Origin: Escherichia phage Ec_Makalu_001
Length of the DNA: 64,000 nucleotides
Sequence record: MN894885.1
Direction: 5' to 3' (one strand)
The notes under the pieces were generated by a model that was not told the origin of the DNA, searched no databases, and saw only the letters and a program-made list of their open reading frames with translations. Positions 13,060 through 40,682 of this stretch are shown one piece after another. The position numbers and the translations under genes were made by a program. Every line of letters starts with the position of its first letter. Position 1 is the stretch's first letter.

Positions 13060-13093
13060 AGAAAACGGGGCTAGTATAAAACTAGTCCCCGTT
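13060..13093 (-). terminator. rho-independent terminator after alt
   Basis: Stem AACGGGGCTAGT / ACTAGTCCCCGTT with T-run on minus strand. Confidence 0.5.
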
Positions 13094-13119
13094 TGAGTCA
13101 ACCATTATTTCTTAAAAAA

Positions 13120-15171
13120 TTACATTTTAAATTTATCCGGCATAGCGTCTACAGACACAAGATCAGCGATAAGCTGACGTAGAGTTGCCTTATCTGCTTT
13201 CTTACGTTCGGTTTTAGCTTCGGTAATGAAGCTGGAGAAAGACAGGTCAGAAGCAGGTTTAACAACACCTTCACGGATGAATGCATCACCGTCCGCGATC
13301 ATCTCACCAGATTCTTGTAATGCTGCCAGTTCATTTTTGTTCATAATATGTGCCTCGATGTAATAAGTTTCTTGTGAATCCGTCGATGCCGTAGCACGAG
13401 TTACCGTATCAAAGGATAACACAACACCGCGAGGAAGTAAAATCTCGCATTCTTTGTAAGCAAATGCTTTGTTACCTACTGGCAATACAGGGATGTTTTC
13501 CGCGCCAGCAATGGAGAAAGCAACATTAGCGCCACCTTCACCGCGAGATCCAGCCATAGAATCAACACCAGCAACGGCACTAGCCACGTTTGCATTCCAT
13601 CCACCAAAAATATTAGGTGCAAGGGAAGTGCTCACATAGTTTTTAAAGTAAAACGCTTTTTGCTTACGTGCAGTTTCCCACATTTGAGAACGGAAGTCCA
13701 TACCACGATACAAGATAGTACCTGGATCAAGTTTAACACCATAGTTAGCAAATGCGTTATCCAGTGCATCACACATCTTGACCAATTCTTCTGGGTCTGC
13801 GATGCCTTCAAACTCTTCCAGCTTACGGTCGGTTAGGAAGTTGTTCATATTGATGTATGCTGCATCCGCATATTCGCTCAACACAAAACCTTCCGCGCCA
13901 GGCAGATCAAGATCAATATCTGCCATCATTTCACCCATGTTGCTAGCAATTGCTTCAAACATACCGGAAGCAACATTACGCAGGGCATCGGTTTTAATCT
14001 GCGTGATGTGACTACGCAGCATTTCAGCTTTTACATCTGCTGGCATAGACTGGTCGACGCGATCCATTGCTAGGGCGGTGATCTTGTTTTCAAACACTTC
14101 TTCATTCATGATTTCTTTTAAGCGTTTGATTGATGCTGCGATAACTTCCGCAGACAACGGATCATATTGATCCTGAACTTTTACCAGTTCGCTTACTGCG
14201 TATTTTGCATCGGCTTCGCTTTCAAAAATAGTACGCATGAAACCATAGCGAGTGATAATATCACTTGTCCAGTCATTCAGAGAACGGGCGGTTGAACGTT
14301 CTAAGGCTTGACGGTCAATCAGAGTATTAAACTGTTTCTTAGGTTCTGCTTCGGTGATATCTTCTTCCGGTTTAAGATTAATTTTTTCTGGATGATTCAC
14401 ATAGTCGCTGTTATAGGTCGCTTGAGTTTTCAGCATTTCTTCTTTAGTCAAACGAGATTTAGCCGCTACGCGTTGTTCTGCTTCCGCGTTTCGTTCTTCT
14501 TCTGACACAAGACTAGCCGCATACGCCTCATCTTTAGTCAGAGATTCACCAGTAGCCTTAGATACCCAGCGATCACCTAAATCACTTTCTACTTTAGTGA
14601 ACAGGGATTCATCGAGTTTAATCCCTTTAATCTTATCAATCGCCATCCCGCGACGTTTGACAACAACTAAAGCGATCTTTTTGCTGGTCATTACTTCCTG
14701 CTGGAATACTTCAAACTTCGGTGTACGACGCACCAAACGCTCTATAACGCGCTTAACCAGTTCGGTCTTACCTTTCATGCGGGATACGTTAAAACGGAAC
14801 ATAACAGCGTCTAATTGCGCTTTACGGGCTGTTTCCATAACCACATCAAAAGCACTTGACATAACTGCAATTGGGTTATCTCCTAGACCATTTTTAAGCT
14901 GTACAATACGACCGCTTTTGTTCATTTCGCACAGTACAACATGTGCGGTCTTGTCACCCATACGAATGATTTTAGGTGTTTTGTTGGTGAAGTTACAAAG
15001 ACGGACAATCACATCTTTATCGCGTGTCTGTACTGCAAAAAGCTGTTTAGGATTCTGCTTAGGCTTTAAGCACTGTACCGGAGCAATACTGCCAAAGTTT
15101 TCTTCCTCTTCCGTCAACAGCCATTTCTCGAAAGATTCAATCATTAGATCGTCGATTTCTAAGTTAAACAT
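13120..15171 (-). CDS. alt: Alt ADP-ribosyltransferase (packaged, RNA polymerase-modifying)
   Basis: 683 aa (T4 Alt 682 aa); motifs YRG / YVSTSL / ECEILLPRG; T4 synteny. Confidence 0.85.
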   Translation of the reverse strand: MFNLEIDDLMIESFEKWLLTEEEENFGSIAPVQCLKPKQNPKQLFAVQTRDKDVIVRLCNFTNKTPKIIRMGDKTAHVVLCEMNKSGRIVQLKNGLGDNPIAVMSSAFDVVMETARKAQLDAVMFRFNVSRMKGKTELVKRVIERLVRRTPKFEVFQQEVMTSKKIALVVVKRRGMAIDKIKGIKLDESLFTKVESDLGDRWVSKATGESLTKDEAYAASLVSEEERNAEAEQRVAAKSRLTKEEMLKTQATYNSDYVNHPEKINLKPEEDITEAEPKKQFNTLIDRQALERSTARSLNDWTSDIITRYGFMRTIFESEADAKYAVSELVKVQDQYDPLSAEVIAASIKRLKEIMNEEVFENKITALAMDRVDQSMPADVKAEMLRSHITQIKTDALRNVASGMFEAIASNMGEMMADIDLDLPGAEGFVLSEYADAAYINMNNFLTDRKLEEFEGIADPEELVKMCDALDNAFANYGVKLDPGTILYRGMDFRSQMWETARKQKAFYFKNYVSTSLAPNIFGGWNANVASAVAGVDSMAGSRGEGGANVAFSIAGAENIPVLPVGNKAFAYKECEILLPRGVVLSFDTVTRATASTDSQETYYIEAHIMNKNELAALQESGEMIADGDAFIREGVVKPASDLSFSSFITEAKTERKKADKATLRQLIADLVSVDAMPDKFKM

Positions 15172-15238: not shown

Positions 15239-15451
15239 TTATAATGCACCATCGAGCAATTGCTCTAAGGTGTATCCTGAATAGTCTTTTTCAATCAGGA
15301 TATATTTTCCTACTCGTTTAATACAACCGCGCATTTCAACGTATTCTGCGTAGTTGATGGTGCGAGTTGTTCCATCTTCTAGTAAAGCAGTACCGATTTC
15401 GTTAATGCGGTCATAAGTTACGTCGGTAATGATGATTTCGATGTTAGCCAT
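15239..15451 (-). CDS. hypothetical protein (70 aa)
   Basis: ORF with RBS and upstream early promoter-like motif; hairpin terminator downstream at ~15211-15233. Confidence 0.4.
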   Translation of the reverse strand: MANIEIIITDVTYDRINEIGTALLEDGTTRTINYAEYVEMRGCIKRVGKYILIEKDYSGYTLEQLLDGAL

Positions 15452-15522
15452 TTGATACTCCTTAGTAGTTCGTTTCGGTATGGGTGTATTATGATATACA
15501 CCCTCTGTTATGTCAACAACTT

Positions 15523-15702
15523 TTAGAACATTTTTGAAATTAATTCTGCTTTGATTTCGCAGAGAACATCTAAAGATTTCTCGTCACCCGCTTTTGCTGC
15601 TTCTGCTTGCATTTTTGAAATGGCTTCAATGTCAGTGCAATTATAAGCCGCTTGAACTTTAGCGATTGCGATGATTGCCGATTCGATGGTTAAGTGTTTC
15701 AT
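15523..15702 (-). CDS. hypothetical protein (59 aa)
   Basis: Manual ORF below track cutoff; ATG 15700-15702 preceded by GGAGAATCA RBS and promoter 15735-15763. Confidence 0.35.
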   Translation of the reverse strand: MKHLTIESAIIAIAKVQAAYNCTDIEAISKMQAEAAKAGDEKSLDVLCEIKAELISKMF

Positions 15703-15734
15703 GTTTGATTCTCCTTTCGTTTCGGTATGTGTGC

Positions 15735-15763
15735 AGTACAGGGGATCGCCGATCCCCTGTCAA
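15735..15763 (-). promoter_or_regulatory. early sigma70-like promoter, palindromic spacer (TTGACA-GGGGATCGGCGATCCCC-TGTACT)
   Basis: Read on minus strand; -35 consensus, 17-bp inverted-repeat spacer with two GATC, weak -10. Confidence 0.45.
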
Positions 15764-15770
15764 CAACTTT

Positions 15771-16289
15771 TTAGTTATTTTTTAATTGCTCATCTTGCAA
15801 TAGGGCAATCACATGCTGGCGATGTTCTTCCGATTGAGGAACACCGAAAAAGTTTGTTTTGTAGAAATACTCTAATCGGTCTTCTCGTGTGCTCTCTTCC
15901 ATCATGATCGCGGGTAGTCCGAGATTTCGGAAACGTCGCTTTTCTGCTGGCGTAAAATCACTGTAATACAACATAGAATCATCATTACCAGCAATGCTAA
16001 ACTCATCCTTCATAAAGGAGAATATTGCGTTTAAACGCTGTTTACCGTCCACGATTTCGATCTCATAGCGAGAGCCATCATCAATCTTAGCCATTGCGAT
16101 AGCACCAACCGGAAAATCATTAATCAGGTTTTCGATAAACATACGTTTGTTTTCGGTGTCCCATACCAAAGGACGCTGATAATCTGGGTTCATGTTGATA
16201 TAGCCATCTTCTAACCACGCCTCATAAACAGAGATGACAAAGTTTTTAGTATTGGTATAGTAACGGCGTTTAGGCGTTAAACGGTTCAT
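15771..16289 (-). CDS. DUF262 / ParB-like (GmrSD N-terminal type) domain protein
   Basis: Motifs NPDYQRPLVW and IVDGKQRLNAI match the DUF262 signature (xQRxxxW ... DGQQR); start chosen at internal ATG 16287-16289 with AGGAG RBS, overlapping upstream stop. Confidence 0.55.
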   Translation of the reverse strand: MNRLTPKRRYYTNTKNFVISVYEAWLEDGYINMNPDYQRPLVWDTENKRMFIENLINDFPVGAIAMAKIDDGSRYEIEIVDGKQRLNAIFSFMKDEFSIAGNDDSMLYYSDFTPAEKRRFRNLGLPAIMMEESTREDRLEYFYKTNFFGVPQSEEHRQHVIALLQDEQLKNN

Positions 16290-16290
16290 G

Positions 16291-16623
16291 TTATAGTCTC
16301 CTGAATGGATCATCACGTAAATCAATATCTTTTAAGAACTCATCCCATGAATGGCGGATATTGTTCTTAATTCTCCAGATAAGCGCAGGGATTGAACGCT
16401 CTCCCATCTGGAAGTAAGGATCATATGATCCATATGCCCAATATGCTACTACAATTCCACAATCGGCGCAATAATATTCTATTTCACTTGCTGGCGACCA
16501 AAGTCCATCAATATGATCACGGATCTTGCTTTCGATGTTATGGCTATGGCAATCAGGGCAACGGATGCAATGACCTTGTTTATCGTAATTTGACGTTAGC
16601 GAATACTTAAACAATCTCATCAT
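16291..16623 (-). CDS. zinc-ribbon protein (CxxC...CxxC)
   Basis: 110 aa; CIRCPDCHSH ... CADCG; ATGA overlap with upstream gene. Confidence 0.45.
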   Translation of the reverse strand: MMRLFKYSLTSNYDKQGHCIRCPDCHSHNIESKIRDHIDGLWSPASEIEYYCADCGIVVAYWAYGSYDPYFQMGERSIPALIWRIKNNIRHSWDEFLKDIDLRDDPFRRL

Positions 16624-17336
16624 AGATCCTTATTGGCTTCAAATACTGCCTTTGCGAATCCTCGCGGGGTAAGTGACCTGATAGTCTTTGTTCTGGTTCC
16701 TTTCCCGCCTAGCTTAGAATGCTGTTTACTGTACCCTTTATTAATCTGCAACGGTTTCTTTTCTGGCATTATAAAGCCTTGTCCGGTCCATAAGCAAGTC
16801 TTTTTCGGGTACATATCACGGGCGGCAATATACTCAGGAAACGTAGGATGCTTATCATCTTCCGGCAAATAACCGCCATATTCCCACGGATGGAACATGT
16901 AATCAGGCTTACGCCACATGCTAGAGATAACGCTTACAGGATTCTCTATCATGTAGGGAACTCCTAGCCATTCACCCAAATAAGCGGTTATTTTAGCTGC
17001 CCTTACATCATGAACTTGAATTAATGGTCCTTGTTCTCGTTTCTTTCGTTCAAAGTGCGCAGCGCCACTAACAGCTAAATTGGTGCATGGTGGGAATGCA
17101 AAGATAATATCCGGTTTCCCCCATTCAAGGTCCATTGCTCTTTCCAGCCAATTTAAATCAATCCATGTGTTTACATATGTAATGTTTGGATGTTCAAATC
17201 GGGTATTATATTTTTTGTATGTACCGTGGTCGCCATCGTCAGCATTAAAGCAGATCACCTTATGACCTGCTTTAGCCCATTCTAACCCCATTATCCCCGA
17301 TCCGTCAAAGTTGCAGAATATTAATTTTTGTTTCAT
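16620..17336 (-). CDS. putative DNA (cytosine-5) methyltransferase-like protein (short)
   Basis: 238 aa; motif I-like FCNFDGSG, motif IV-like FAFPPCTNLAVSG (Pro-Cys), motif VI-like MIENP; no clear motif VIII/X. Confidence 0.4.
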   Translation of the reverse strand: MKQKLIFCNFDGSGIMGLEWAKAGHKVICFNADDGDHGTYKKYNTRFEHPNITYVNTWIDLNWLERAMDLEWGKPDIIFAFPPCTNLAVSGAAHFERKKREQGPLIQVHDVRAAKITAYLGEWLGVPYMIENPVSVISSMWRKPDYMFHPWEYGGYLPEDDKHPTFPEYIAARDMYPKKTCLWTGQGFIMPEKKPLQINKGYSKQHSKLGGKGTRTKTIRSLTPRGFAKAVFEANKDL

Positions 17337-17578
17337 ATACGCCCCTTTAACCCAACACAGATTTTAGAAGGTTCTTTGCCGTGCCACATTAAGTAAATTC
17401 CGTTAATGCGTCCTTGTTTTGTATATGATTCTTTTCTGATCTTCTTATAGTGTCGTGCTTCCTCAGCCGATTGTTTAGAATGTCGATCATAAAGGAAGAG
17501 GAACAAAGGCCAACCATTAGCGGCCTTAATGCAGTTATTCAAAAATTCCTTATTTCGTTTAATTAATTTTCTTTTCAC
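17333..17578 (-). CDS. hypothetical basic protein (81 aa)
   Basis: ATGA overlap on both sides; member of the coupled cassette. Confidence 0.4.
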   Translation of the reverse strand: MKRKLIKRNKEFLNNCIKAANGWPLFLFLYDRHSKQSAEEARHYKKIRKESYTKQGRINGIYLMWHGKEPSKICVGLKGRI

Positions 17579-17826
17579 GCTGCCCCCATTGGTTTGATAG
17601 TAACAGAATCTAAAAGACCTTTGTTAGCCAGTTCGCGGCAAGTTTTCAGATCCGCAACTTCCCAGCCAGCCGCAATAAGGTTATCAATGAGGCTGTTAGC
17701 AACTTCTTCGCTCATGAAAGAGCACTGTTTGCCGATGGTGTAGCGTACACGCTGTAATTTCAGTTTACGGAAGCCTTTAACGTTCAGGTCTTTAGCGATT
17801 TTCTTTGCGGTTTCGATGTTAGCCAT
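17575..17826 (-). CDS. hypothetical protein (83 aa), first gene of coupled cassette
   Basis: RBS GGAGAATCA; promoter 17867-17895 upstream. Confidence 0.45.
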   Translation of the reverse strand: MANIETAKKIAKDLNVKGFRKLKLQRVRYTIGKQCSFMSEEVANSLIDNLIAAGWEVADLKTCRELANKGLLDSVTIKPMGAA

Positions 17827-17866
17827 TGTTTGATTCTCCTAAGTGGTATCTCGTCTTGATGGTTGT

Positions 17867-17895
17867 ATTGTAGGGGAGTTATCCTCCCCTGTCAA
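17867..17895 (-). promoter_or_regulatory. early sigma70-like promoter, palindromic spacer (TTGACA-GGGGAGGATAACTCCCC-TACAAT); drives 5-gene cassette
   Basis: Minus-strand -35/-10 with 17-bp inverted-repeat spacer, A-rich UP region. Confidence 0.55.
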
Positions 17896-17909
17896 CACTT
17901 TTTATAAAA

Positions 17910-18077
17910 TTATTTGTTAATTTCTGGTGCGTTGCTAGGATAGTAACCTTCTTTAACTCCGAGGTATTTCGCAACCATCCCTACAATCTTCTGTGCTACT
18001 ACAATGTCAAATTTCAGATAATCTTCGCCGTGGGTTTCAATGATATATGCTTCACATGCTGCTTTAGTCTCGAACAT
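17910..18077 (-). CDS. hypothetical protein (55 aa), duplicate copy A
   Basis: Manual ORF MFETKAACEAYIIETHGEDYLKFDIVVAQKIVGMVAKYLGVKEGYYPSNAPEINK; near-identical to 21193-21360. Confidence 0.45.
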   Translation of the reverse strand: MFETKAACEAYIIETHGEDYLKFDIVVAQKIVGMVAKYLGVKEGYYPSNAPEINK

Positions 18078-18110
18078 TTTGATTCTCCTATTTCGTTTCG
18101 GTATGTGTGT

Positions 18111-18139
18111 ATTATAGGGGATCTCCCGATCCCCGTCAA
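18111..18139 (-). promoter_or_regulatory. early sigma70-like promoter, palindromic spacer (TTGACG-GGGATCGGGAGATCCCC-TATAAT)
   Basis: Minus-strand; consensus -10; two GATC in spacer. Confidence 0.55.
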
Positions 18140-18153
18140 CAACTTTTTTAAAA

Positions 18154-18435
18154 TTATTCGTGATTAGTTTCGATATTGTGCATTTTGCACCAGTTCAGCC
18201 AATCGCCAAGATCTTGATAGTTGATGCTTTTATCTGCTGCCATCGTTTTTGTCTTGATACCCATATGTGCGTTATGAGTAAGCATTTTTACAGTGAACTC
18301 AATTTTATCGCCTTTAGCTTTAACATCAACCAGTTTGGTCCACTGGCTACCAGCACCGCGAATGTTCATACCAACGATGTTTCCGATGTATGCTTCTTTG
18401 TTGTTCAGGATTTCGGTTGCTTTGATGAATTTCAT
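18154..18435 (-). CDS. hypothetical protein (93 aa)
   Basis: ORF with RBS and upstream promoter 18111-18139. Confidence 0.45.
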   Translation of the reverse strand: MKFIKATEILNNKEAYIGNIVGMNIRGAGSQWTKLVDVKAKGDKIEFTVKMLTHNAHMGIKTKTMAADKSINYQDLGDWLNWCKMHNIETNHE

Positions 18436-18505
18436 TTTTGATTCTCCAGTTCGTTTCGGTATGGGTGTATTATGCTATGTTCTTACTTTGGTGTCAACAA
18501 CTTTT

Positions 18506-18775
18506 TTAGATATTTTCAGAAATAAATTTTAAAACTTGACGTAAATGTTTCTCATCTTTGATAGTCGCCGGAAGTTCTTCTTTTACTTCCTGTGCAAGAT
18601 AGATATTTCCGTTCCAAGTGAAAGACCCGTCTTCGTTTACGCGATAGCTGAACATCCATTCGCAATCATTTTCGATTTCATATACACACAGAAGGGTGTA
18701 ATCTTCAAAGCTATTGATTTCAAGGTCGAAGCCGTGGCGTTTTGCAAAGTTGGTAGTGGTTTTAGTCAGTGCCAT
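18506..18775 (-). CDS. hypothetical protein (89 aa)
   Basis: ORF with GGAGAATCA RBS and upstream promoter-like motif. Confidence 0.45.
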   Translation of the reverse strand: MALTKTTTNFAKRHGFDLEINSFEDYTLLCVYEIENDCEWMFSYRVNEDGSFTWNGNIYLAQEVKEELPATIKDEKHLRQVLKFISENI

Positions 18776-18901
18776 TGTTTGATTCTCCTAAGTGGTATCT
18801 CGTTTCGATGGGTGTATTATGCTATAGGCGTGATCAGGTGTCAATGCCTTTTTTAAAATTTTATGCAATAAAAAAGCCGACACTAAGGTCGGCTAATAAA
18901 A

Positions 18902-19210
18902 TCATTTAGGCAAATAATCATTCAGTGCAATCCGGTCGGCATGTTCCGGCGTTACATCAATCGCAATCACTTTAACGCGTGCTTTCTTGCGACCTGGGTT
19001 TTCTCGTAACCAGTGCTCATGACCGTGAACATTTTTATACTGCGATGCTTCTTCGAAGGTACGGATCGGACCAGGGTAATCAGCGTAAAGGATCTCTAGG
19101 TCATCGGTGATGTAAAAATATACGTTGTAATTACTGTTCTCTAGCTTAAGCAGAGACTTTCGGAACATTGGGAGATTTTCGCGGGTAAATTCAAAAGTAA
19201 TATCTTTCAT
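18902..19210 (-). CDS. HxHW-family small protein (paralogue A)
   Basis: Start chosen at ATG 19208-19210 with RBS; motif HGHEHW ... VIAIDV. Confidence 0.4.
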   Translation of the reverse strand: MKDITFEFTRENLPMFRKSLLKLENSNYNVYFYITDDLEILYADYPGPIRTFEEASQYKNVHGHEHWLRENPGRKKARVKVIAIDVTPEHADRIALNDYLPK

Positions 19211-19233
19211 AGTATTATCCTCAATAGTTGGAT

Positions 19234-19255
19234 GAAAAGGGGGCTTAACGCCCCA
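19234..19255 (-). terminator. rho-independent terminator (repeat of GGGGCTTAACGCCCC hairpin)
   Basis: Hairpin followed by T-run on minus strand. Confidence 0.5.
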
Positions 19256-19259
19256 TATA

Positions 19260-19547
19260 TTAAAACAGTCCTTCCTGTACACCGTAGTAGAGTTCGTCGC
19301 TGATAATTTCATTAATGCGACGGTGTGCATATTCCTGATTTGCGAAGTTGTCAGCAAGTTCTACTTTAGTTTCACCGTCATGAGTCCATTTAGTGATAAC
19401 TTTACCATCTGCAAATTTGAAGTTGAACTCTTTAGCTACTGCATCGCGTACCAGACGTGCGAACTTGTTGTTACGGATTGCATTATCGGTTTCGTGTGCA
19501 GCGTGAGCAAATTTGTTAACTTTCAGAGTGATAGTGATGTATGCCAT
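19260..19547 (-). CDS. hypothetical protein (95 aa)
   Basis: ORF with GGAGAATCA RBS; hairpin terminator downstream. Confidence 0.45.
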   Translation of the reverse strand: MAYITITLKVNKFAHAAHETDNAIRNNKFARLVRDAVAKEFNFKFADGKVITKWTHDGETKVELADNFANQEYAHRRINEIISDELYYGVQEGLF

Positions 19548-19630
19548 AATTTGATTCTCCTAGTTAGAAAGTGTATCTCGTTTCGATGGGTGTATTATGC
19601 TATACACCCGATCTTATGTCAACACTTTTT

Positions 19631-19909
19631 TTATAAAATAATTTTTTGATATTTTTCTATGATGTTTGTGTAATCCACATCAACCGCTATCACCGTTGCT
19701 TCGAATCCACCGTTTAGCCAATGGCTATGGTCATGATCGTGAAAGAAACCAAGACCAGTACGAAGACCTTCTTTATATTCGGCGCGTACATTTAGATCAT
19801 CATCGATAAACAGATAAAACCATGAATTTTTACTAGGATTGATGATACAACCTTTCAGATTAGGGAGAATATCACGACTAAGAATAAACTTATCACCTAC
19901 TTTGAACAT
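19631..19909 (-). CDS. HxHW-family small protein (paralogue B)
   Basis: Start at ATG 19907-19909 with GAGGA RBS; motif HDHSHW ... VIAVDV. Confidence 0.45.
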   Translation of the reverse strand: MFKVGDKFILSRDILPNLKGCIINPSKNSWFYLFIDDDLNVRAEYKEGLRTGLGFFHDHDHSHWLNGGFEATVIAVDVDYTNIIEKYQKIIL

Positions 19910-19913
19910 AATA

Positions 19914-20234
19914 TTAGTCCTCACTTATAAGGTCAAACCAATTGTTTTTCGCATAATGCTTAATGCGTGCTTGATCTGCTTCCGCTGGTGATAGATTCCA
20001 TGCAACCACTACAACTTCTGACGCGTCGTCATCCGTTTCTGATACCCAATGATTGTGATTCATACAGTTATTTGCGATCGAGTGAGCAAATGATTTCATC
20101 ACTGGAGACGTATAATCATAGTAACGGATTTTCAGATTTTCATCAACATACAAGTAGATCGTATAAGGTTTATATTCAGTAACCAGTAACAGACAGTTAC
20201 GCAATTCTGGGAAAATCTTTTTAGTTAATTTCAT
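19914..20234 (-). CDS. HxHW-family small protein (paralogue C)
   Basis: Start at ATG 20232-20234 with GAGGA RBS; motif NHNHW ... VVVVAW. Confidence 0.4.
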   Translation of the reverse strand: MKLTKKIFPELRNCLLLVTEYKPYTIYLYVDENLKIRYYDYTSPVMKSFAHSIANNCMNHNHWVSETDDDASEVVVVAWNLSPAEADQARIKHYAKNNWFDLISED

Positions 20235-20235
20235 T

Positions 20236-20454
20236 TTATAATCCTCGGTCGCGGCTATAGTACACGGTACGCCATACAATTTCATGTTTCGTGTCGCTCC
20301 AGCACACGATCTCATTTACTCTTAAATCTTTGTTATCAACAAAAGATGAACATTGTGACGCTTCTTTCATCATTTTATCTGCTGTTTTCTCATCAAATAC
20401 AGCACAGATTTCTTTATACACTCGATAATCTTTGAATTGACTCTGGATACCCAT
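20236..20454 (-). CDS. hypothetical protein, paralogue of 20414-20671
   Basis: Shared pattern QFKDYRVYKEICAVFDEKTADKMMKEASQC vs KFKDYKAYQQILRVYDAEFAEKMMEDASKC; start assigned to internal ATG. Confidence 0.35.
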   Translation of the reverse strand: MGIQSQFKDYRVYKEICAVFDEKTADKMMKEASQCSSFVDNKDLRVNEIVCWSDTKHEIVWRTVYYSRDRGL

Positions 20455-20671
20455 AATTAACACCATTCCAACCAATTGTTTTTGAGAAAACGTTTATCCA
20501 CTGTTGAGTGTAGCATGTTTCTTTCCATGATACAATACGAGTAGAATAATGGTTTTTGTTTCCAGAAAAGGACGGGCATTTTGATGCATCTTCCATCATC
20601 TTTTCGGCGAACTCCGCGTCATATACCCGCAGGATCTGTTGATATGCTTTATAATCTTTAAATTTGCTCAT
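20414..20671 (-). CDS. hypothetical protein, paralogue of 20236-20454
   Basis: 85-aa ORF; tandem paralogue pair. Confidence 0.4.
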   Translation of the reverse strand: MSKFKDYKAYQQILRVYDAEFAEKMMEDASKCPSFSGNKNHYSTRIVSWKETCYTQQWINVFSKTIGWNGVNYGYPESIQRLSSV

Positions 20672-20936
20672 AATTGTTAACTACCTTATCAGCTTCTTTT
20701 ATTGTTTTTACATCAACTGCGATAATCCGTAAAGGTTCGTCGAAGGTCCACCAGTGGTCATGAATATCAGCTTGTGATTTATCACCAAAGGAATCACGAA
20801 TATCATTTTTACATTTATAGCTAATATGGCCTTCATAGTCAACATAAAGGTAATTATCGAAAATCGGCGTTTTTAAGATCATACCGAAAAATCTTTCTTT
20901 GTGTGTCTTATCCAGTGTTGCAGTAATTCGCATCAT
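20658..20936 (-). CDS. HxHW-family small protein (paralogue D)
   Basis: 92 aa; motif HDHWW ... IIAVDV; GAGGA RBS. Confidence 0.45.
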   Translation of the reverse strand: MMRITATLDKTHKERFFGMILKTPIFDNYLYVDYEGHISYKCKNDIRDSFGDKSQADIHDHWWTFDEPLRIIAVDVKTIKEADKVVNNYEQI

Positions 20937-20948
20937 AATATATTCCTC

Positions 20949-21128
20949 TTAGAAAGGGATGGTCATTTCTTGAGCTTGTACATTCTCGTTAGGATTAAAC
21001 TTCATCCAACCGATATTGTCTACCAGCATATGTACATTTTTATCATATCCTACGTGAGTAGTCAACACTAAATGTGCTTTGCCTTCAACGATGATTTCCA
21101 TGTACTTCTGAACTTCGATAGCTTTCAT
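20949..21128 (-). CDS. hypothetical protein (59 aa)
   Basis: Manual ORF below track cutoff; GGAGAATCA RBS; promoter-like motif upstream. Confidence 0.3.
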   Translation of the reverse strand: MKAIEVQKYMEIIVEGKAHLVLTTHVGYDKNVHMLVDNIGWMKFNPNENVQAQEMTIPF

Positions 21129-21192
21129 TTTGATTCTCCGTTTGTTTTCTTGATGGGAGTATCTTACTACTCCCTTTAATCATTGTCAACTA

Positions 21193-21360
21193 TTATTTGT
21201 TAATTTCTGGTGCGTTGCTCGGATAGTAACCTTCTTTAACACCCAGATATTTTGCAACCATTCCGGTGATCTTCTGTGCTACTACGATATCGAATTTCAG
21301 GTAGTCTTCACCGTGGTTTGCTACAATGTATGCTTCGCATTCTGCTTTAGTCTCGAACAT
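21193..21360 (-). CDS. hypothetical protein (55 aa), duplicate copy B
   Basis: MFETKAECEAYIVANHGEDYLKFDIVVAQKITGMVAKYLGVKEGYYPSNAPEINK; start at ATG 21358-21360 with GGAGAATCA RBS; promoter 21395-21423. Confidence 0.45.
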   Translation of the reverse strand: MFETKAECEAYIVANHGEDYLKFDIVVAQKITGMVAKYLGVKEGYYPSNAPEINK

Positions 21361-21394
21361 TTTTGATTCTCCTATATCTCGTTGGTATGTGTGT

Positions 21395-21423
21395 AGTATA
21401 GGGGATCTGCGATCCCCTGTCAA
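21395..21423 (-). promoter_or_regulatory. early sigma70-like promoter, palindromic spacer (TTGACA-GGGGATCGCAGATCCCC-TATACT)
   Basis: Minus-strand; upstream of duplicate copy B. Confidence 0.5.
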
Positions 21424-21428
21424 CAACT

Positions 21429-21723
21429 TTATAATGCTTTATACGCGTATTTCATAAATTTGTCTGCCACTTCATTGGCATGTTCAGATTCTACGCCTGA
21501 TTCGAGAACAATAGCTAGGTCGGTTTCGTCATTCCCGCCGTACCAATGATTTGATGTTCGATTTTTTTCAATTGGAAATTGGTCACTTTTATCTGTGCGA
21601 CAAAATACATCTAAATGCTCGTCGATGTAAAAGATCCAATCTTCATAAAGAATAACGGTATTAGCAAGATTTTTATTGCCTTCAACGAAAGGTTCCGCGA
21701 CAAATAGCTTAGTTTGTTCCATA
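21429..21723 (-). CDS. HxHW-family-like small protein (paralogue E, divergent)
   Basis: Motif YIDEHL ... SNHWYGG ... LAIVLE; start at ATG 21721-21723 with GAGGA RBS. Confidence 0.35.
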
Positions 21724-21738
21724 GTAATTTCCTCAAAA

Positions 21739-21930
21739 TTATACAGTTTCGTAAACTTCCCAATGTTCAGCGCCAACACGCTTAACGAAAAGGTTTTCTT
21801 TGATGTTATTCATAAACGTCTGGATGGATTTAATGCGGTTTGAAGGTTTCCATTCTTCGTTGGCATTGCGTCGATACATCATAACATTACCAGTTCGCTT
21901 ATATTCAGCAACCATTTTAAGACCACACAT
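21739..21930 (-). CDS. hypothetical protein (63 aa)
   Basis: ORF with GAGGA RBS. Confidence 0.3.
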   Translation of the reverse strand: MCGLKMVAEYKRTGNVMMYRRNANEEWKPSNRIKSIQTFMNNIKENLFVKRVGAEHWEVYETV

Positions 21931-21987
21931 AATATTATCCTCAATTTGTGGGAGAGTATTACCCCTCCCAATGATTGTTATGTTATA

Positions 21988-22308
21988 TCACACAAAATGG
22001 CGTGTCAATGCTTCTTTTGCGGTTCCGCTAAGACTTTCAATCTCGCCTGGCATAACATCAACCGCCAGAACTTCTACAACATCTTCGGACCCTAACCAGT
22101 GAGTATGGCCTTTGTAGAACTTGATAACCAGACCACCTTCCTCGTCCCATTTAACGCTATCGCTAGCCCACCACACATCACCGTCGATAAAGTTGATGTA
22201 AAGCACACTACGCCACATTGAATTAATTACTTTCAATACTGCGCCTTTCATCTCTTCCACGGTATGGTCTTCCATTTTGAAGACCTCACCTACCTGAACT
22301 TTTGCCAT
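21988..22308 (-). CDS. HxHW-family small protein (paralogue F)
   Basis: 106 aa; motif GHTHW ... VLAVDV; GAGGTGA RBS. Confidence 0.45.
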   Translation of the reverse strand: MAKVQVGEVFKMEDHTVEEMKGAVLKVINSMWRSVLYINFIDGDVWWASDSVKWDEEGGLVIKFYKGHTHWLGSEDVVEVLAVDVMPGEIESLSGTAKEALTRHFV

Positions 22309-22325
22309 TTAGTCACCTCTCTTTA

Positions 22326-22505
22326 TTACATAACAATCACGCCAGCCGTTGAAAGTTGATGTTTCAACTGAGCATTTTCTGCTACCGTCAAATCAATGAT
22401 TTCTTGTGACGCTGCAATCATATATCCATTGGTGATATTGTTTTGCATCAGTTCAATGGTCTCTTCGTTGTAGCGGATTTTAGCGATGATTTCGTTGAAG
22501 TTCAT
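22326..22505 (-). CDS. hypothetical protein (59 aa)
   Basis: Manual ORF below track cutoff; promoter 22540-22569 and GGAGAATCA RBS. Confidence 0.3.
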   Translation of the reverse strand: MNFNEIIAKIRYNEETIELMQNNITNGYMIAASQEIIDLTVAENAQLKHQLSTAGVIVM

Positions 22506-22539
22506 GTTTGATTCTCCTAGTTCGTTTCGGTATGTGTGT

Positions 22540-22569
22540 ATTATAGGGGAGTTTAACCTCCCCTGTCAA
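22540..22569 (-). promoter_or_regulatory. early sigma70-like promoter, palindromic spacer (TTGACA-GGGGAGGTTAAACTCCCC-TATAAT)
   Basis: Minus-strand; 18-bp inverted-repeat spacer. Confidence 0.5.
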
Positions 22570-22577
22570 CAACTTTT

Positions 22578-22889
22578 TTAAAGTTTTTCCATGATAACGG
22601 TCATAATTACATCTTCTGCGCGAGCGGTCAGATTATCAGCGTCAGTATGTGGGCGGTTGGTTGTTACAGAGATAACACCGTTGCGCACTGGTTTGATATT
22701 GATATCAAGATGATCCGCGAAACGTTCGCCAGTTACAGAATGAATTTTGGTGTTAAATTCTTTTGCCAGTGCCTTGCGAACTTCACGAATCAGGATAGCG
22801 TTTTTCAGTTGGTTCTCCGCGCTCATGGTCTTCTGAGTGTTCATGGTTCCGTCGAAGTCAATCATTGGCAGCGTTACGATGTATTTCAT
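22578..22889 (-). CDS. hypothetical protein (103 aa)
   Basis: ORF with GGAGAATCA RBS; promoter 22935-22963. Confidence 0.45.
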   Translation of the reverse strand: MKYIVTLPMIDFDGTMNTQKTMSAENQLKNAILIREVRKALAKEFNTKIHSVTGERFADHLDINIKPVRNGVISVTTNRPHTDADNLTARAEDVIMTVIMEKL

Positions 22890-22934
22890 TTTTGATTCTC
22901 CGTTTAAGAAAGTGTGTTTCGTTTTGATGTGTGT

Positions 22935-22963
22935 AGTATAGGGGATACGTGATCCCCTGTCAA
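22935..22963 (-). promoter_or_regulatory. early sigma70-like promoter, palindromic spacer (TTGACA-GGGGATCACGTATCCCC-TATACT)
   Basis: Minus-strand; upstream of 103-aa gene. Confidence 0.5.
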
Positions 22964-22976
22964 CAACTTTTTTGAA

Positions 22977-23453
22977 TTATTTTTCTTGATGCTCGCGCTC
23001 GTACTTTTCGAAATAAAATTCTACTGGCTGGTCATGAATTGACAGCAAGCCAAAGCGTTTAGCCGCTCGCAATCCCATATTGCGCTGAATGTACTTCTGG
23101 AAGTTCTCGCGTATACACTTACGCCAGTATTCTAAGCCCATACAGCTTTTATAAAGATTGCATTGCACACACGCCGGATTCATGTTATCAAGTATATCAT
23201 GCTCCGGTTTATGCATTCCTACAACCTTATACTTCCACGATCCATCATCGTTACGGGCAATGCGACCATTTTCATCATAGACTACTTTTGAGCGTCGTAA
23301 TACTGGTTTGATGTGGTCTGCGTGCCAGCGATCCCCTAGTTCCTCACCACAATAGGCACAACGTCCACCGTATTTCATTTTCAGGATCTGGCGTTGCTCT
23401 TTCTTTGACAATTTTTTAGGTTTAGGGGCTTTCGCCCCTTCATTATCACACAT
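22977..23453 (-). CDS. HNH endonuclease
   Basis: 158 aa; CAYCGEELGDRWHADHIKPV ... N ... CVQCNLYK (Cys4 / H-N-H pattern). Confidence 0.6.
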   Translation of the reverse strand: MCDNEGAKAPKPKKLSKKEQRQILKMKYGGRCAYCGEELGDRWHADHIKPVLRRSKVVYDENGRIARNDDGSWKYKVVGMHKPEHDILDNMNPACVQCNLYKSCMGLEYWRKCIRENFQKYIQRNMGLRAAKRFGLLSIHDQPVEFYFEKYEREHQEK

Positions 23454-30359: not shown

Positions 30360-30758
30360 TTAACTTTCCAGAATATCGCGAGCTTCGTTACGCTCCTTGA
30401 TGATTTTCAGGACAAATTCCAGTTTTTCTTTGTTTAGTGTTCCGTTTTCCATTGCTTCTTTGACGGTAAACACTCCGCCACCTTGCCCGTATACAGTGAC
30501 AGTGATTTCACCTAACATCGTGGTATGAAAACCTCCAATTTTCGGTGATTCGAAAGAAACAATTACCTCGCGGACAGTATTACCGTCGTTGATTTCTGAG
30601 AGGGTAATGTCGTTTTTGTAGGCGGTTGCTTTAACCATACGGATCAACATAGTCTGATCTGGGGAGATGGTCATTTTGTCCATTGCATGTTGCAATGCAG
30701 CGTAACCGAAAACTTTAACGAAGTCCAGAACGTCTTTGCGAGTTTGAAATTTAATCAT
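30360..30758 (-). CDS. hypothetical protein (132 aa)
   Basis: ORF with RBS; promoter-like motif upstream; hairpin terminator downstream. Confidence 0.45.
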   Translation of the reverse strand: MIKFQTRKDVLDFVKVFGYAALQHAMDKMTISPDQTMLIRMVKATAYKNDITLSEINDGNTVREVIVSFESPKIGGFHTTMLGEITVTVYGQGGGVFTVKEAMENGTLNKEKLEFVLKIIKERNEARDILES

Positions 30759-30828
30759 CTTGATACTCCTTAGTTGTTTTGGGATGGGAGTATCTTACTA
30801 CTCCCGTGATATGCTGTCAACTGCTTTT

Positions 30829-30978
30829 TTATGCAACCGCAAACATCAACATTTGAACATTCTTGGCTGTCTGGCTTTCAAAGTTCTGACATTCTTTGAT
30901 AATGTCCTCTACTTTCTCGCCGGAGATCTCCGCGTAAGTTTCGATTGCCATTTTCAGTACCGCGTCAAAGTTGTTCAT
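30829..30978 (-). CDS. hypothetical protein (49 aa)
   Basis: Manual ORF; GGAGAATCA RBS; promoter-like motif upstream. Confidence 0.25.
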   Translation of the reverse strand: MNNFDAVLKMAIETYAEISGEKVEDIIKECQNFESQTAKNVQMLMFAVA

Positions 30979-31045
30979 TTGATTCTCCTTAAAGTGTATT
31001 TCGTTTCGATGGGGGTATATTACTACCCCCGTTTCATGCTGTCAA

Positions 31046-31264
31046 CTACTTTTTAATGACAAGTTCGAATTTTGCTACCTTGCGTCCTCGTTTATTGAAA
31101 GCAACCCACGGACGGTTTTCAATGTAGAACAATTCTTCGCCAATAATGAATACTGGCTGATTGTAAAGGCGACCCATCAGGTCACGCTGGCGAATGGTAT
31201 TAGATTCGTATACTTCGCCTACTACAAAGTGCTTGCTGATAGAGTCGGTGCAAGTAAATTTCAT
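31046..31264 (-). CDS. hypothetical protein (72 aa)
   Basis: ORF with GGAGAATCA RBS and promoter-like motif. Confidence 0.4.
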   Translation of the reverse strand: MKFTCTDSISKHFVVGEVYESNTIRQRDLMGRLYNQPVFIIGEELFYIENRPWVAFNKRGRKVAKFELVIKK

Positions 31265-31333
31265 TTTGATTCTCCTTTGTTTCGTTTCGATGGGAGTATC
31301 TTACAACTCCCAATATTCAGTGTCAACTGCTTT

Positions 31334-31552
31334 TTACTTGTTGTATTCATTCCACCAACGAGTAAGTTTATCGATTATTTTTGTGTTTCTATCCAATTTC
31401 TCCCACCGTTTACGCGGGTTTATAAGCCGGAATAGGTAGGGTGTACTTGTTAAGTGAACTCGGTCAAAATAATGGTTGATAAGCTGGCATTCAATTCTCA
31501 ATTTCATCTTTTTACGATGAAAATATGCAATTACTTGTTCTTCTGTTTCCAT
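31334..31552 (-). CDS. hypothetical protein (72 aa)
   Basis: ORF with RBS and promoter-like motif. Confidence 0.35.
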   Translation of the reverse strand: METEEQVIAYFHRKKMKLRIECQLINHYFDRVHLTSTPYLFRLINPRKRWEKLDRNTKIIDKLTRWWNEYNK

Positions 31553-31652
31553 ATGTTCCTCCGTTTCGATGCGTGCATTATGCTATGGCAAGATCCGATT
31601 GTCAACACCCAATAACAAAAAAGTCGCCACTATGGGCGACTTAGGTTAAACA

Positions 31653-33642: not shown

Positions 33643-33872
33643 TATCCGACAACCTCAAAACATTTATCATCAGGAAGAATAGCCCATTCTACGCCGTATT
33701 CATCCTTAACGTAGTAGCAAGTCCCATCATGTCGAGCATCATATTCATCACCGACAACAAAGCTATCAGCTAGCTCAAAATCTACAGCAACACATTTTAA
33801 TTTTGCCATAATAAAATCCTCATTTGTTTTTGATGGTTGCATTATAGCGGGGATTTCTCCCCGCGTCAACAC
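33642..33872 (-). CDS. hypothetical protein (76 aa)
   Basis: ORF with promoter (TTGACG - palindromic spacer - TATAAT) at ~33845-33875. Confidence 0.4.
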   Translation of the reverse strand: MLTRGEIPAIMQPSKTNEDFIMAKLKCVAVDFELADSFVVGDEYDARHDGTCYYVKDEYGVEWAILPDDKCFEVVG

Positions 33873-33877
33873 TTATT

Positions 33878-36121
33878 TTACAGTTTGCAAGATGAACATT
33901 CGCTAGCGTCTTCCGTACCATCAGCACCATCACGCACGTTAGCGTAATACAGTGTCTTGAGGCCGTAATATTGAGCAAACAGCATATCATCTAACACATC
34001 AGCAATATCGACTTTACCAGTCTTATAAGTGCTTGGATCGTAGGATGTATTGGAACTAATCGCCTGATCTACAAACTTCTGCATGATCGCTGCCAGTGTC
34101 AGATAAGGTTTGTTACCTTTCTTGATCAGTGTCCAAAGCAGGTCAATAACATCAGCATTATTCTCTACGTTCGGAATAACCTGATTAAATTGTCCTTCCT
34201 TTGATCCTTTAACCGATACAATCCCGCGAGGCGGTTCTATTCCATTGGTGCTATTAGATACCTGAGAAGACGACTCACAAGGCATCAGCGCCGATAGTGT
34301 ACTGTTACGAATGCCATATTTTTTCAGGTCTTCGCGCAGTTCTTCCCAATCCATCTCATACACCGGGTCAACCAGTTCATCTACTGTCTTTTTGTACCAG
34401 TCAATAGGAAGTTCACCGCGACCATAACGTGTTTCGTGCATCAGTTCGCAAGCGCCCTTCTCTTTTGCTAGCTGCACACTAGCTTTAATCAGAGCATATT
34501 GCAAGCGTTCAAACGTTTTATGCGTAAACTCGTTAGCGTCTTCATATGTGAAGAAATTATCCGCCAGATATGATGCAAAGTTAGTCACACCAACACCCAG
34601 AGAGCGACGTTTCTTAGCTGTCAGTGCTTGTTTTACAGGATAATCCTGATAATCTAACAGGTTATCAAGTGCACGCACCATAACCATAGCGATCCGCTCT
34701 ACTTCTTCCATGTTTTCGATATCGAAATTACCTAAAACATATGCTGCCAAAGTGCATAGGCTGATCTCTGAATCATCACGACCCATCGGTTTTGTCGGCA
34801 GAGCGATTTCACAACACAGGTTAGATTGTTTAATCGGTGCTACATTACGAATAAACGCCCCGTGATTGTTCATGTTGTCTGTGAACGCTGGATAGATTCG
34901 ACCAGTGTTAAAACGTTCAATTGCCACCGCTAAAAACAGGTCTTCGGCTTTAACACGAGTTTTACGAACACTCGGATCTTTTTCCAGTTTTTCATAAAGC
35001 TGGCGGAATCCTTCCTCATCTCGGAAGTACAGATCCCACAACAAGCCACCCGCAACATCTGGACTAAACAGAGTAATGTAATCACGTTTAAGGAATCGCT
35101 CTACCATCAGGTTATTAATCTGTACGCCGTAATCAAGATGACGAATGCGGTTATCTTCTACCCCTTTGTTGTTCTTCAACACAATAAGACTTTCAAACTC
35201 TAAATGCCACATTGGGTAATAGAGAGTCGCCGCCCCGCCACGAATACCGCCTTGTGAGCATGACTTAACGGCAGTCTGAAAATGTTTCCAGAATGGGATA
35301 ACGCCAGTATGACGAACTTCACCATGCCCGATCTTAGATCCTTCCGCTCGAATCATACCAGCATTGATACCGATACCAGCACGCTTACTAATATACTTGA
35401 TGATTGCATTTGCTGTTTCGTTGATGCCCTGCAATGAGTCATCACTTTCAATCACCACACACGAACTAAATTGTCGTGTTGGAGTACGCACACCAGCCAT
35501 AATCGGAGTAGGCAGAGAAATTTGCTTATTCGCAACAGCATTATAAAAATCAATCACATGTTCAAGTCGATTTTCTGTCTCTTCTTGATGTAAGCACATA
35601 CCGATCAGCATATAAGCAAATTGCGGTGTTTCAATGATTTTCTTAGTGCTGCGATCCTGAACAAGATATTTCTCTTTTAACTGCATTGCACCAGCATAGG
35701 TCATTTTAAAGTCAAGTTTATGGTCGATGAATTTCTCCAGATATTCCACTTCTTCACGGGAATACTTTTGCAGAATTTCGCGATCATATTTTCCGGTTGC
35801 AATATTACGCTCAATATGGCTGTAAAAATCAATTGGTTGGAATTGACCGTATACTGATTTACGAAGCGCGAACATTGCAAGGTTACTTGCTACATATTGA
35901 TAATCAGGTGTTTCTACAGTAATGTTATCTGCGGCGACCTTAATCAATACTTTCTGGATATCGTTAGTAGACATACCTTCTGTCAGAAGTGGTTCAACCA
36001 TATCAAACAATTCATATGGATCAACGTTATGACCTTCGGCTGCCGCTTCCAGAATTTTCATTACTTTTTCTCTTTCAAACGGAACAGTCAGACCGGAAGA
36101 CTTAACAACATTTTTAATCAT
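33878..36121 (-). CDS. nrdA: ribonucleotide reductase large subunit (class Ia alpha)
   Basis: 747 aa; catalytic NLCCEIALP region, C-terminal CSSC-type tail. Confidence 0.9.
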   Translation of the reverse strand: MIKNVVKSSGLTVPFEREKVMKILEAAAEGHNVDPYELFDMVEPLLTEGMSTNDIQKVLIKVAADNITVETPDYQYVASNLAMFALRKSVYGQFQPIDFYSHIERNIATGKYDREILQKYSREEVEYLEKFIDHKLDFKMTYAGAMQLKEKYLVQDRSTKKIIETPQFAYMLIGMCLHQEETENRLEHVIDFYNAVANKQISLPTPIMAGVRTPTRQFSSCVVIESDDSLQGINETANAIIKYISKRAGIGINAGMIRAEGSKIGHGEVRHTGVIPFWKHFQTAVKSCSQGGIRGGAATLYYPMWHLEFESLIVLKNNKGVEDNRIRHLDYGVQINNLMVERFLKRDYITLFSPDVAGGLLWDLYFRDEEGFRQLYEKLEKDPSVRKTRVKAEDLFLAVAIERFNTGRIYPAFTDNMNNHGAFIRNVAPIKQSNLCCEIALPTKPMGRDDSEISLCTLAAYVLGNFDIENMEEVERIAMVMVRALDNLLDYQDYPVKQALTAKKRRSLGVGVTNFASYLADNFFTYEDANEFTHKTFERLQYALIKASVQLAKEKGACELMHETRYGRGELPIDWYKKTVDELVDPVYEMDWEELREDLKKYGIRNSTLSALMPCESSSQVSNSTNGIEPPRGIVSVKGSKEGQFNQVIPNVENNADVIDLLWTLIKKGNKPYLTLAAIMQKFVDQAISSNTSYDPSTYKTGKVDIADVLDDMLFAQYYGLKTLYYANVRDGADGTEDASECSSCKL

Positions 36122-38623: not shown

Positions 38624-38953
38624 TCAAATCAGTTTGAAATAGTTTTCGTTTACATTTTCTTCTGTGATTGCTGTCTTAAATTCTTGACCGTTATCCGGTG
38701 TGATGAAATAACGGTCAGAATAATCACGAAAACGTTTTAAGTGAGATACCCCAACATTAACACCATTTTCCCAAAAACGAAAGGTAATCATTTTTGGTTC
38801 ATATCGATAGTCGCTGGTTAACACAGTGCCATCACCGCGACGGGCTTCATAAACCATAATACATTCACGGTTAGCGGCTTTAATACATTCTTCAATAGTG
38901 CCACATGCGATAATACTTACTGTTTCATCTACGATTTGTTCTACAGTCCACAT
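38624..38953 (-). CDS. hypothetical protein (109 aa)
   Basis: ORF with promoter-like motif at ~38960-39010. Confidence 0.4.
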   Translation of the reverse strand: MWTVEQIVDETVSIIACGTIEECIKAANRECIMVYEARRGDGTVLTSDYRYEPKMITFRFWENGVNVGVSHLKRFRDYSDRYFITPDNGQEFKTAITEENVNENYFKLI

Positions 38954-39008
38954 AATATAATCCTCACTTTGTTTCGATGTTTGTATTATACATCATCTGT
39001 GTTCGGCG

Positions 39009-39338: not shown

Positions 39339-39383
39339 TGTTAATCCTCCGTTGTTTCGATGAGTTCATTATACACTATTGGG

Positions 39384-40607: not shown

Positions 40608-40648
40608 ATCAGCACGTCAACACCTTTTTCATAAAATTTTAGGCAATA

Positions 40649-40672
40649 AAAAAGCCTCCCCGAAGGGAGGCT
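40649..40672 (-). terminator. rho-independent terminator after gene 32
   Basis: GCCTCCC-CGAA-GGGAGGC followed by T-run on minus strand. Confidence 0.6.
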
Positions 40673-40682
40673 TTAAAATTCA

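Follow-up and report, generated by a model that had tools for sequence, protein, structure and literature searches.

The closest described relatives of the repeats that are treated here are the promoter-early stem-loops (PeSLs) of the phages RB49 and phi1, which were first defined in the alt-gp30 hyperplastic region (Arbiol, Comeau, Kutateladze, Adamia & Krisch 2010, Genome Biol Evol 2:140; PMC2839356): each of them consists of an AT-rich tract, a promoter of sigma-70 consensus and a polyG/polyC-rich stem-loop, followed by a Shine-Dalgarno (SD) sequence and an ATG. Five subclasses were distinguished by the position of the stem, the commonest being those where it is placed between the -35 element and the -10 or overlaps the latter; 52 copies were counted in phi1 and 51 in RB49, and lacZ fusions of RB49/phi1 elements were reported to show that the promoter is active and that the stem-loop acts as a terminator/attenuator (PMC2839356). 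Here, we have analysed 64,000 nucleotides of Escherichia phage Ec_Makalu_001 (MN894885.1), a stretch that we refer to as “the window”, where a unit of the form aaaaagttg-TTGACA-(17 nt)-TATAaT-ACACACATACCGAAACGAA..GGAGAATCAAA-ATG is repeated between small open reading frames (ORFs) on the minus strand of the interval 15700-22970. These repeats are very probably the PeSL cassettes of a Krischvirus, i.e. strong early promoters with a hairpin of their own that are at the same time patches of homology for gene exchange.

The result is mainly a confirmation: in RB49-type phages, the cassettes explain how small accessory genes are gained and lost while their expression is kept, and the model of 2010, drawn from two genomes, holds with more Krischvirus genomes, where 6% of the sequence holds about half of the rearrangement boundaries. 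The additions that are made here are small, namely the covarying stems, the event-specific crossover points and the hairpins that occur within the promoter and have no U-tract; because of the last of these, the label “terminator” is provisional for the in-promoter hairpins, pending direct mapping of 3' ends.

Identity and anatomy of the cassettes

The repeats are identified as PeSLs because they occupy the same locus, match the published definition and are nearly or fully identical to named RB49 copies. The window belongs to a Krischvirus, with 95-99.5% identity to RB49, phi1, JSE, GEC-3S, Ec_Makalu_003, KFS-EC and kvi, and the interval 15700-22970 is bounded by alt (13120-15171) and by the gene of the DNA ligase gp30 (23446-24948), being the orthologue of RB49 ORF185-212, the alt-gp30 hyperplastic region. 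The cassette with its -35 at 22963 is identical to RB49 PeSL211/210 at 87 of 87 positions, the one at 18139 agrees with PeSL192/191 at 75 of 76 positions, with an identical core, and the one at 21423 agrees with PeSL206/205 at 64 of 68 positions (94%); in the GEC-3S record, promoter, -35 and -10 features are already annotated at the orthologous sites. The elements are already known, some of them being nucleotide-identical to type examples, and the preliminary description, which had likened them to the PeSLs of RB49/phi1-type phages, recognised them correctly: genus and locus are those of the named RB49 PeSLs, to which individual copies are 94-100% identical.

A profile built from clear copies (nhmmer, cut-off E<=1e-5) finds 25 cassettes in the window; every one is on the minus strand, with an ORF directly downstream of it, in agreement with the at least 25 minus-strand early promoters that had been proposed. 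We refer to each cassette by the position of its -35 T: 15516, 15763, 17895, 18139, 18497, 18844, 19622, 21189, 21423, 22569, 22963, 30820, 31045, 31326, 31605, 33869, 39012, 39395, 40620, 57972, 58195, 58475, 58788, 59493 and 59768. The pattern AARNNGTTGACA-N17-TATAATAC, with up to three mismatches, occurs 19 times, always on the minus strand, against 0.18 occurrences expected from dinucleotide shuffles, while the strict regular expression TTGAC-N17-19-TAnnnT has 46 matches on the minus strand and 12 on the plus strand; chance is excluded as the origin of the repeats. The cassettes are clustered at alt-gp30, denA-nrdB, frd-gp32 and upstream of gp52, with 11 of the 25 located in or adjoining 15700-22970. 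That they stand between nearly every small ORF is an overstatement: this applies to 11 of the 25 alt-gp30 genes, the others being part of tightly packed multi-gene runs. Most of the proteins tested that are encoded downstream of cassettes have no Pfam match.

Each cassette is ~90-100 bp long and consists of four parts: an A-rich, UP-like tract, the promoter, the hairpin and the 5' untranslated region (5'UTR). The UP-like tract contains the stop codon of the upstream gene, has an A/T fraction of 0.55-0.90 in the 20 nt before the -35 and typically carries the motif aaaaagttgTTGACA; the promoter is a near-consensus sigma-70 promoter, TTGACA-N17-TAtAaT; the hairpin has a G-rich and a C-rich arm, placed across the spacer or around the -10; and the 5'UTR is conserved, unstructured and terminated by GGAGAATCAAA-ATG. 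In all 25 cassettes, an SD sequence, GGAG or GAGG, is followed by the ATG 4-10 nt further on. With regard to activity, the promoter of PeSL206/205 gave ~13,000 Miller units in a lacZ fusion (PMC2839356), and the early-promoter consensus of RB49 is reported to agree with the 5'-end mapping of early transcripts (Nolan et al. 2006); judging from the match to the consensus and from the published reporter test on orthologues, the host RNA polymerase would start early transcription ~7 nt past the -10.

Compared with the PeSLs of RB49 and phi1, the cassettes of the window are alike in genus, locus, architecture, the two dominant stem positions and the association with insertions and deletions (indels) of ORFans, and the example indels of the original paper recur here, at the insertion site of ORF192 (~18150) and at ORF210 (22578-22889) (PMC2839356). 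There is essentially no difference, and this phage has its own gene complement between the cassettes: it is without the ORF192 and ORF211 of RB49 and carries extra genes at 39.0-39.4 kb and 59.5-59.7 kb. The PeSLs and PmSLs of T4/PST and KVP40/nt-1 (Comeau, Arbiol & Krisch 2014; PMC4122927) are also units of promoter and stem-loop that bound gene swaps in hyperplastic regions, but their promoters differ (TTTACW..TAYWAT and TTGYVH..TAWWAT, as against the near-perfect TTGACA-N17-TATAAT here) and their stems are AT-richer (A3-4G3-loop-C3T3-4 and AGNA-loop-TCNT, as against the RB49-type GN/CN here). A BLAST search of one cassette against 50,697 phage records found full-length matches only in Krischvirus, while phages of Cronobacter, Klebsiella and Enterobacter contributed UTR-like fragments of 31 nt; in IMG/VR, the exact pattern of class 1 (see below) matched only two contigs, both Krischvirus-like, and no Rfam covariance model matched at its gathering threshold across the whole window.

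Classes of hairpin and their probable level of action

A perfect stem of at least 7 bp is found between the -35 and position +10 in 17 of the 25 cassettes, compared with 0.8% among shuffled 45-mers and 2.1% among 45-nt windows of the real sequence; the dG of the in-promoter hairpins ranges from -9 to -16 kcal/mol, and the mean fold z-score of the cassettes is -1.9. The preliminary description had distinguished two classes of hairpin, and both are real. In class 1, with eight copies (15763, 17895, 18139, 21423, 22569, 22963, 33869 and 58195), the palindrome is the spacer itself, extending from the final -35 base as far as the first -10 base, e.g. AGGGGATC-ggc-GATCCCCT or AGGGGAG-gataa-CTCCCCT, with the variants GGGGATC-n3/4-GATCCCC, GGGGAG-n5/6-CTCCCC, GGGGAT-cacgt-ATCCCC and GCGGGGA-gaaa-TCCCCGC. 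In class 2, with seven copies (21189, 30820, 31045, 31326, 57972, 58475 and 59493), GGGAGTA-gtaaga-TACTCCC or a variant of it encloses the -10, TAAGAT; only one of the seven lies inside 15700-22970. A third type, which had been missed, has two copies (15516 and 19622), where GGGTGTAT-n6-ATACACCC surrounds the -10 CATAAT, and it has decayed, stemless relatives at 18497, 18844, 31605 and 59768. Eight cassettes, with 39012, 39395 and 40620 among them, have no in-promoter stem of at least 7 bp; over the 25 cassettes, the stem-loop is in the promoter in 17, is replaced by an upstream hairpin with a T-run in four and is absent in four. The clusters that had been listed outside the alt-gp30 region are correctly placed, but 15516, 31605 and 33869 fall outside the listed ranges, and 39012, 39395 and 40620 are without a promoter stem. 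The cassettes, and two probable additional ones with weak matches to the profile, are the following:

15447..15541 (-): PeSL cassette; -35 at 15516; stem GGGTGTAT-atcata-ATACACCC around the -10 CATAAT; drives the ORF 15239-15451
15698..15785 (-): PeSL cassette; -35 at 15763; spacer ACAGGGGATC-ggc-GATCCCCTGT; weakened -10 TGTACT; drives the ORF 15523-15702
17821..17916 (-): PeSL cassette; -35 at 17895; spacer AGGGGAG-gataa-CTCCCCT; drives the ORF 17575-17826
18073..18163 (-): PeSL cassette, RB49 PeSL192/191; -35 at 18139; spacer GGGGATC-ggga-GATCCCC; insertion/deletion site in RB49, JSE, G2494, FL04, Cognac and JK32
18431..18524 (-): stemless cassette; -35 at 18497; -10 CATAAT; left arm lost
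18771..18894 (-): cassette without internal stem; -35 at 18844; canonical terminator hairpin with T-run just upstream, 18894-18875
19542..19639 (-): PeSL cassette; -35 at 19622; stem GGGTGTAT-agcata-ATACACCC around the -10
21125..21210 (-): PeSL cassette; -35 at 21189; GGGAGTA-gtaaga-TACTCCC around the -10 TAAGAT
21353..21445 (-): PeSL cassette; -35 at 21423; spacer AGGGGATC-gca-GATCCCCT; RB49 counterpart PeSL206/205, tested as a promoter
22498..22594 (-): PeSL cassette; -35 at 22569; 18-nt spacer AGGGGAG-gttaaa-CTCCCCT; perfect TTGACA/TATAAT
22884..22982 (-): PeSL cassette; -35 at 22963; spacer AGGGGAT-cacgt-ATCCCCT; RB49 counterpart PeSL211/210, its stem-loop tested as a terminator
30751..31341 (-): three class-2 cassettes; -35 at 30820, 31045 and 31326; 31045 is the compensatory variant GGGGGTA/TACCCCC
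31549..31642 (-): cassette without internal stem; -35 at 31605; upstream terminator 31642-31621
33803..33895 (-): PeSL cassette; -35 at 33869; spacer GCGGGGA-gaaa-TCCCCGC; upstream of the ORF 33673-33837 (orthologue of RB49 ORF233), the start of nrdA being further upstream, at 36121
38948..39421 (-): two stemless cassettes; -35 at 39012 and 39395; 16-nt spacers; between them, an additional gene not present in RB49, phi1 or GEC-3S
40559..40674 (-): cassette without internal stem; -35 at 40620; upstream terminator 40674-40651
57914..58813 (-): four cassettes; -35 at 57972 (class 2), 58195 (class 1), 58475 (class 2) and 58788 (decayed stem)
59428..59808 (-): two cassettes; -35 at 59493 (class 2) and 59768 (no internal stem, upstream terminator 59808-59786); the gene in between is missing from RB49
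13073..13123 (-): probable additional PeSL, divergent, located between alt and the following ADP-ribosyltransferase gene; TTGACT-N17-TATACT; -10 enclosed by a bulged stem of 13 bp, then TTTTC
21940..22022 (-): probable extra PeSL with the stem-loop downstream of the -10; TTGACA-N17-TAACAT, TGGGAG-gggtaatact-CTCCCA, then GAGGATAATATTATG

The orthologous site of 13073..13123 is annotated as a promoter in GEC-3S and as a terminator in Ec_Makalu_003. The palindromic GATC of some cassettes was also considered as a Dam or restriction signal and was rejected, as the window has 326 GATC against a Markov expectation of 330, only 13 of them in cassettes.

When the stems of 143 cassette copies with 90 distinct cores, drawn from the window and from ten relatives, are compared, paired substitutions are seen at equivalent positions: GGGAGTA/TACTCCC, GGGGGTA/TACCCCC, GGGTGTAT/ATACACCC and GGGGATAT/ATATCCCC, the last of which is the stem of the RB49 orthologue of cassette 19622 and amounts to two compensatory pairs. 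In the mixed alignment of class 2 and the third type, the covariation score exceeds that of 500 out of 500 shuffles in both stem registers; these are offset by 2, and each of them shows up as the other's +/-2 “slide” control. The MAFFT alignment of class 1 misplaced the stems, owing to the variable loop length, and was excluded from the pair counts. When only internal mismatches are tallied, positions past the stem base being left out as the source of the “C.A” counts, there are five G.T on the sense strand, no A.C and two G.A; although the sample is small, G.T-only mismatches of wobble type fit pairing in the RNA of the sense transcript, and the covariation of the stems with G.U intermediates points to a role at the RNA level.

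The hairpin is always located upstream of the predicted start site of its own cassette and is, therefore, present only in RNA that is read through from the upstream gene. Four of the eight hairpin-less cassettes (18844, 31605, 40620 and 59768) have a canonical terminator (hairpin and T-run) immediately upstream, whereas this holds for none of the 17 that bear a hairpin (hypergeometric p=0.0055); this suggests that internal hairpin and terminator do the same job. Rho-independent (intrinsic) terminators resemble the PeSLs in closing a transcription unit with a GC-rich hairpin, but the U-tract is present only at the four separate upstream hairpins: the 17 in-promoter hairpins all lack it, with 0-3 T in the 8 nt that follow, and these are, therefore, not canonical intrinsic terminators. 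The stem covariation and the exchange with canonical terminators support a role in which the hairpin would end, attenuate or cap the upstream transcript within the read-through RNA, so that each small gene or gene group would be an insulated unit. We tentatively propose that the hairpins have been selected as RNA, that they are interchangeable with terminators in spite of having no U-tract, and that they act as non-canonical stop or 3'-end-capping signals inside the next promoter, each ORFan then travelling together with its promoter and UTR as one completely insulated unit. Apart from the missing U-tract, three points weigh against the explanation of the cassettes as a whole: the shuffle test of covariation makes no correction for the kinship among copies, four cassettes (18497, 39012, 39395 and 58788) have no hairpin anywhere nearby, and the function of the hairpin rests on a single published reporter assay of one stem-loop, that of PeSL211/210, which cut lacZ expression about as much as rrnB T1 (PMC2839356).

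It is also conceivable, though doubtful, that the promoter and recombination roles hold while the hairpins are 3'-end protection or processing structures, or pause sites, and not terminators, the published drop of lacZ then reflecting RNA processing or stability. The complete lack of U-tracts and the wobble-type mismatches, which indicate an RNA-level role in the sense transcript, are compatible with this alternative, and the published assay cannot tell termination from processing; on the other hand, true terminators upstream of hairpin-less cassettes (4/8 against 0/17) suggest an equivalent function, and the lacZ reduction was comparable to that of rrnB T1.

Read in the antisense direction, some class-2 hairpins (58441-58460 and 59459-59478, plus strand) have a T-rich tract behind them, which stems from the A-rich promoter spacer; such hairpins could stop antisense transcription.

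Recombination between cassettes

The window was aligned with ten relatives (RB49, phi1, GEC-3S, JSE, Ec_Makalu_003, JK32, G2494, FL04, phiS and Cognac) by stringent megablast, since permissive gap settings bridged replaced segments and masked the breakpoints. After merging, there are 30 distinct rearrangements with 60 boundaries, of which 31 lie inside cassettes, although the cassettes occupy 5.9% of the window (binomial p=1.6e-22). Among the 19 pure indels, both ends are in cassettes in 11, one end in one and neither in seven; the 11 consist of seven deletions between two different cassettes (15492/15716, 17861/18103, 22550/22927, 21372/22887, 30774/30999, 38992/39368 and 59467/59733) and four insertions at a single cassette, including the sites of ORF192 and ORF211. 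The deletion 22550/22927 is that of ORF210, the mini-circle example of the original paper, where circular products were obtained by inverse PCR for ORF192 and ORF210 in RB49/phi1 (PMC2839356). The comparison with related genomes, which had been suggested as a check, does find breakpoints at the elements.

At most of the junctions with both ends in cassettes, 3-46 nt are common to the two parental cassettes, in equivalent register, and the crossover site differs from event to event, being located at the right arm, the -10 and +1, in the middle of the 5'UTR, or between SD and ATG; this variation favours general homologous recombination over recombination at a fixed site. In addition, modules are reassorted among the cassettes of the window, the UTR insert ACACTTT being shared by the three stem types and CCACTT by two of them. 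Because ~25 near-identical units of 100 bp lie in direct orientation, the general homologous recombination of the phage is proposed to cross over between them, with deletion, duplication or exchange of the genes between cassettes, a step that the comparison of the genomes shows. Of the eight single-gene differences in presence or absence, six concern genes with a cassette on either side, compared with a background of 14 of 82 genes (p=5e-4).

The view of the cassettes as a recombination hotspot, which had been put forward in the preliminary description, holds in this comparison. Within alt-gp30 alone, the broken junctions (9/11 with a cassette against 7/14 others) show no significant enrichment (p=0.11), in seven of the 19 pure indels neither end is in a cassette, and cassette-free insertions, tight and SD/ATG-coupled, occur in FL04 at 16289, in JSE at 22308 and in phiS at 25987; these findings count against the hotspot view, and because several indels are found at plain gene junctions, the cassettes are preferred, but not exclusive, sites of recombination. 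The same weak junction-level enrichment and the many tight insertions at SD/ATG junctions are what would be expected if the cassettes were independently selected strong promoters that overlap with indels merely through a common location in a non-essential hyperplastic region, without any causal role. We consider this improbable, given the 11 indels with both ends in cassettes, mostly at equivalent positions with shared sequence, the concentration of the variable genes among the cassette-flanked ones, the conservation over ~100 bp that goes beyond the needs of a promoter and includes the 5'UTR, and the experimental detection of mini-circles from such exchanges in RB49 and phi1.

A still less probable alternative, namely that the palindromes are DNA sites of a dimeric phage or host protein (an operator for early-promoter shut-off, or the target of a mobilising site-specific recombinase), is at odds with stems that vary by compensatory changes instead of being conserved, that occupy different places with respect to the promoter, in two registers around the -10, that tolerate G.T intermediates and that, with 7-10 bp and loops of 3-8 nt, are short for cruciform extrusion, and also with crossover sites that vary between events, unlike a fixed cut site. 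Such a role was raised as a speculation by the original authors (PMC2839356), and the GGGG...CCCC symmetry of class 1 is centred exactly in the spacer.

Two further differences concern relatives. The deletion of ORF189.1 in JSE and JK32 (17335-17562, minus strand) is bounded not by cassettes but by a 16-nt near-repeat, TGAAAAGAAAATTAAT and TGAAACAAAAATTAAT, at two consecutive gene starts, and is an example of microhomology-mediated loss. In GEC-3S, gp27 (baseplate hub) is missing 327 bp relative to the window (6395-6723, plus strand) and RB49; this reflects either a true in-frame loss or an error in the assembly of that record.

Neighbouring genes and other repeats

Two families of paralogues are found on the minus strand of the hyperplastic region. 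The genes 17910-18077 and 21193-21360 have 91% amino acid identity, and each of them follows a class-1 cassette; a looser family of ~100 amino acids comprises 18902-19210, 19631-19912, 19914-20234 and 21988-22308, with the motif HxHW...V(I/V)A(I/V)DV and blastp E-values of 1e-12 to 1e-4. In the same region, a run of three genes (15771-17336, minus strand) may be related to restriction or anti-restriction: it includes a protein with a GmrSD_N (DUF262) domain (Pfam E=4e-20), a small ORF that resembles a zinc ribbon (weakly, below the Pfam cut-off) and an ORF that is annotated as a Dcm/C-5 cytosine methyltransferase in relatives and has no Pfam match at E<=0.01.

The canonical terminators 19254-19240 and 15233-15217 (minus strand) are nearly identical (GGGGCGTTAAGCCCC and a T-run) and are located after unrelated small genes; they are a second repeated regulatory module, which has no promoter.

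Between td and nrdA, an extra ORF of 100 amino acids (36133-36467, minus strand) with a DUF4326 domain (Pfam E=6.5e-23) has no counterpart in RB49, phi1 or GEC-3S. In front of this ORF stands a stem-loop without a promoter, GCGGGGA-ggaa-TCCCCGC, then AAGGAGTATCAAATG, the stem being the same as that of cassette 33869; the td/nrdA junction of RB49 has a different hairpin, GGGGGCGAAAGCCCCC.

Lastly, the gene annotated as an endonuclease between cassettes 39395 and 40620 (39400-40560, minus strand; RB49 ORF240) has for the most part been replaced in RB49 and phi1, where the segment measures ~1.1-1.25 kb, compared with ~0.95 kb in the window; it is probably a variable gene of homing-endonuclease type.

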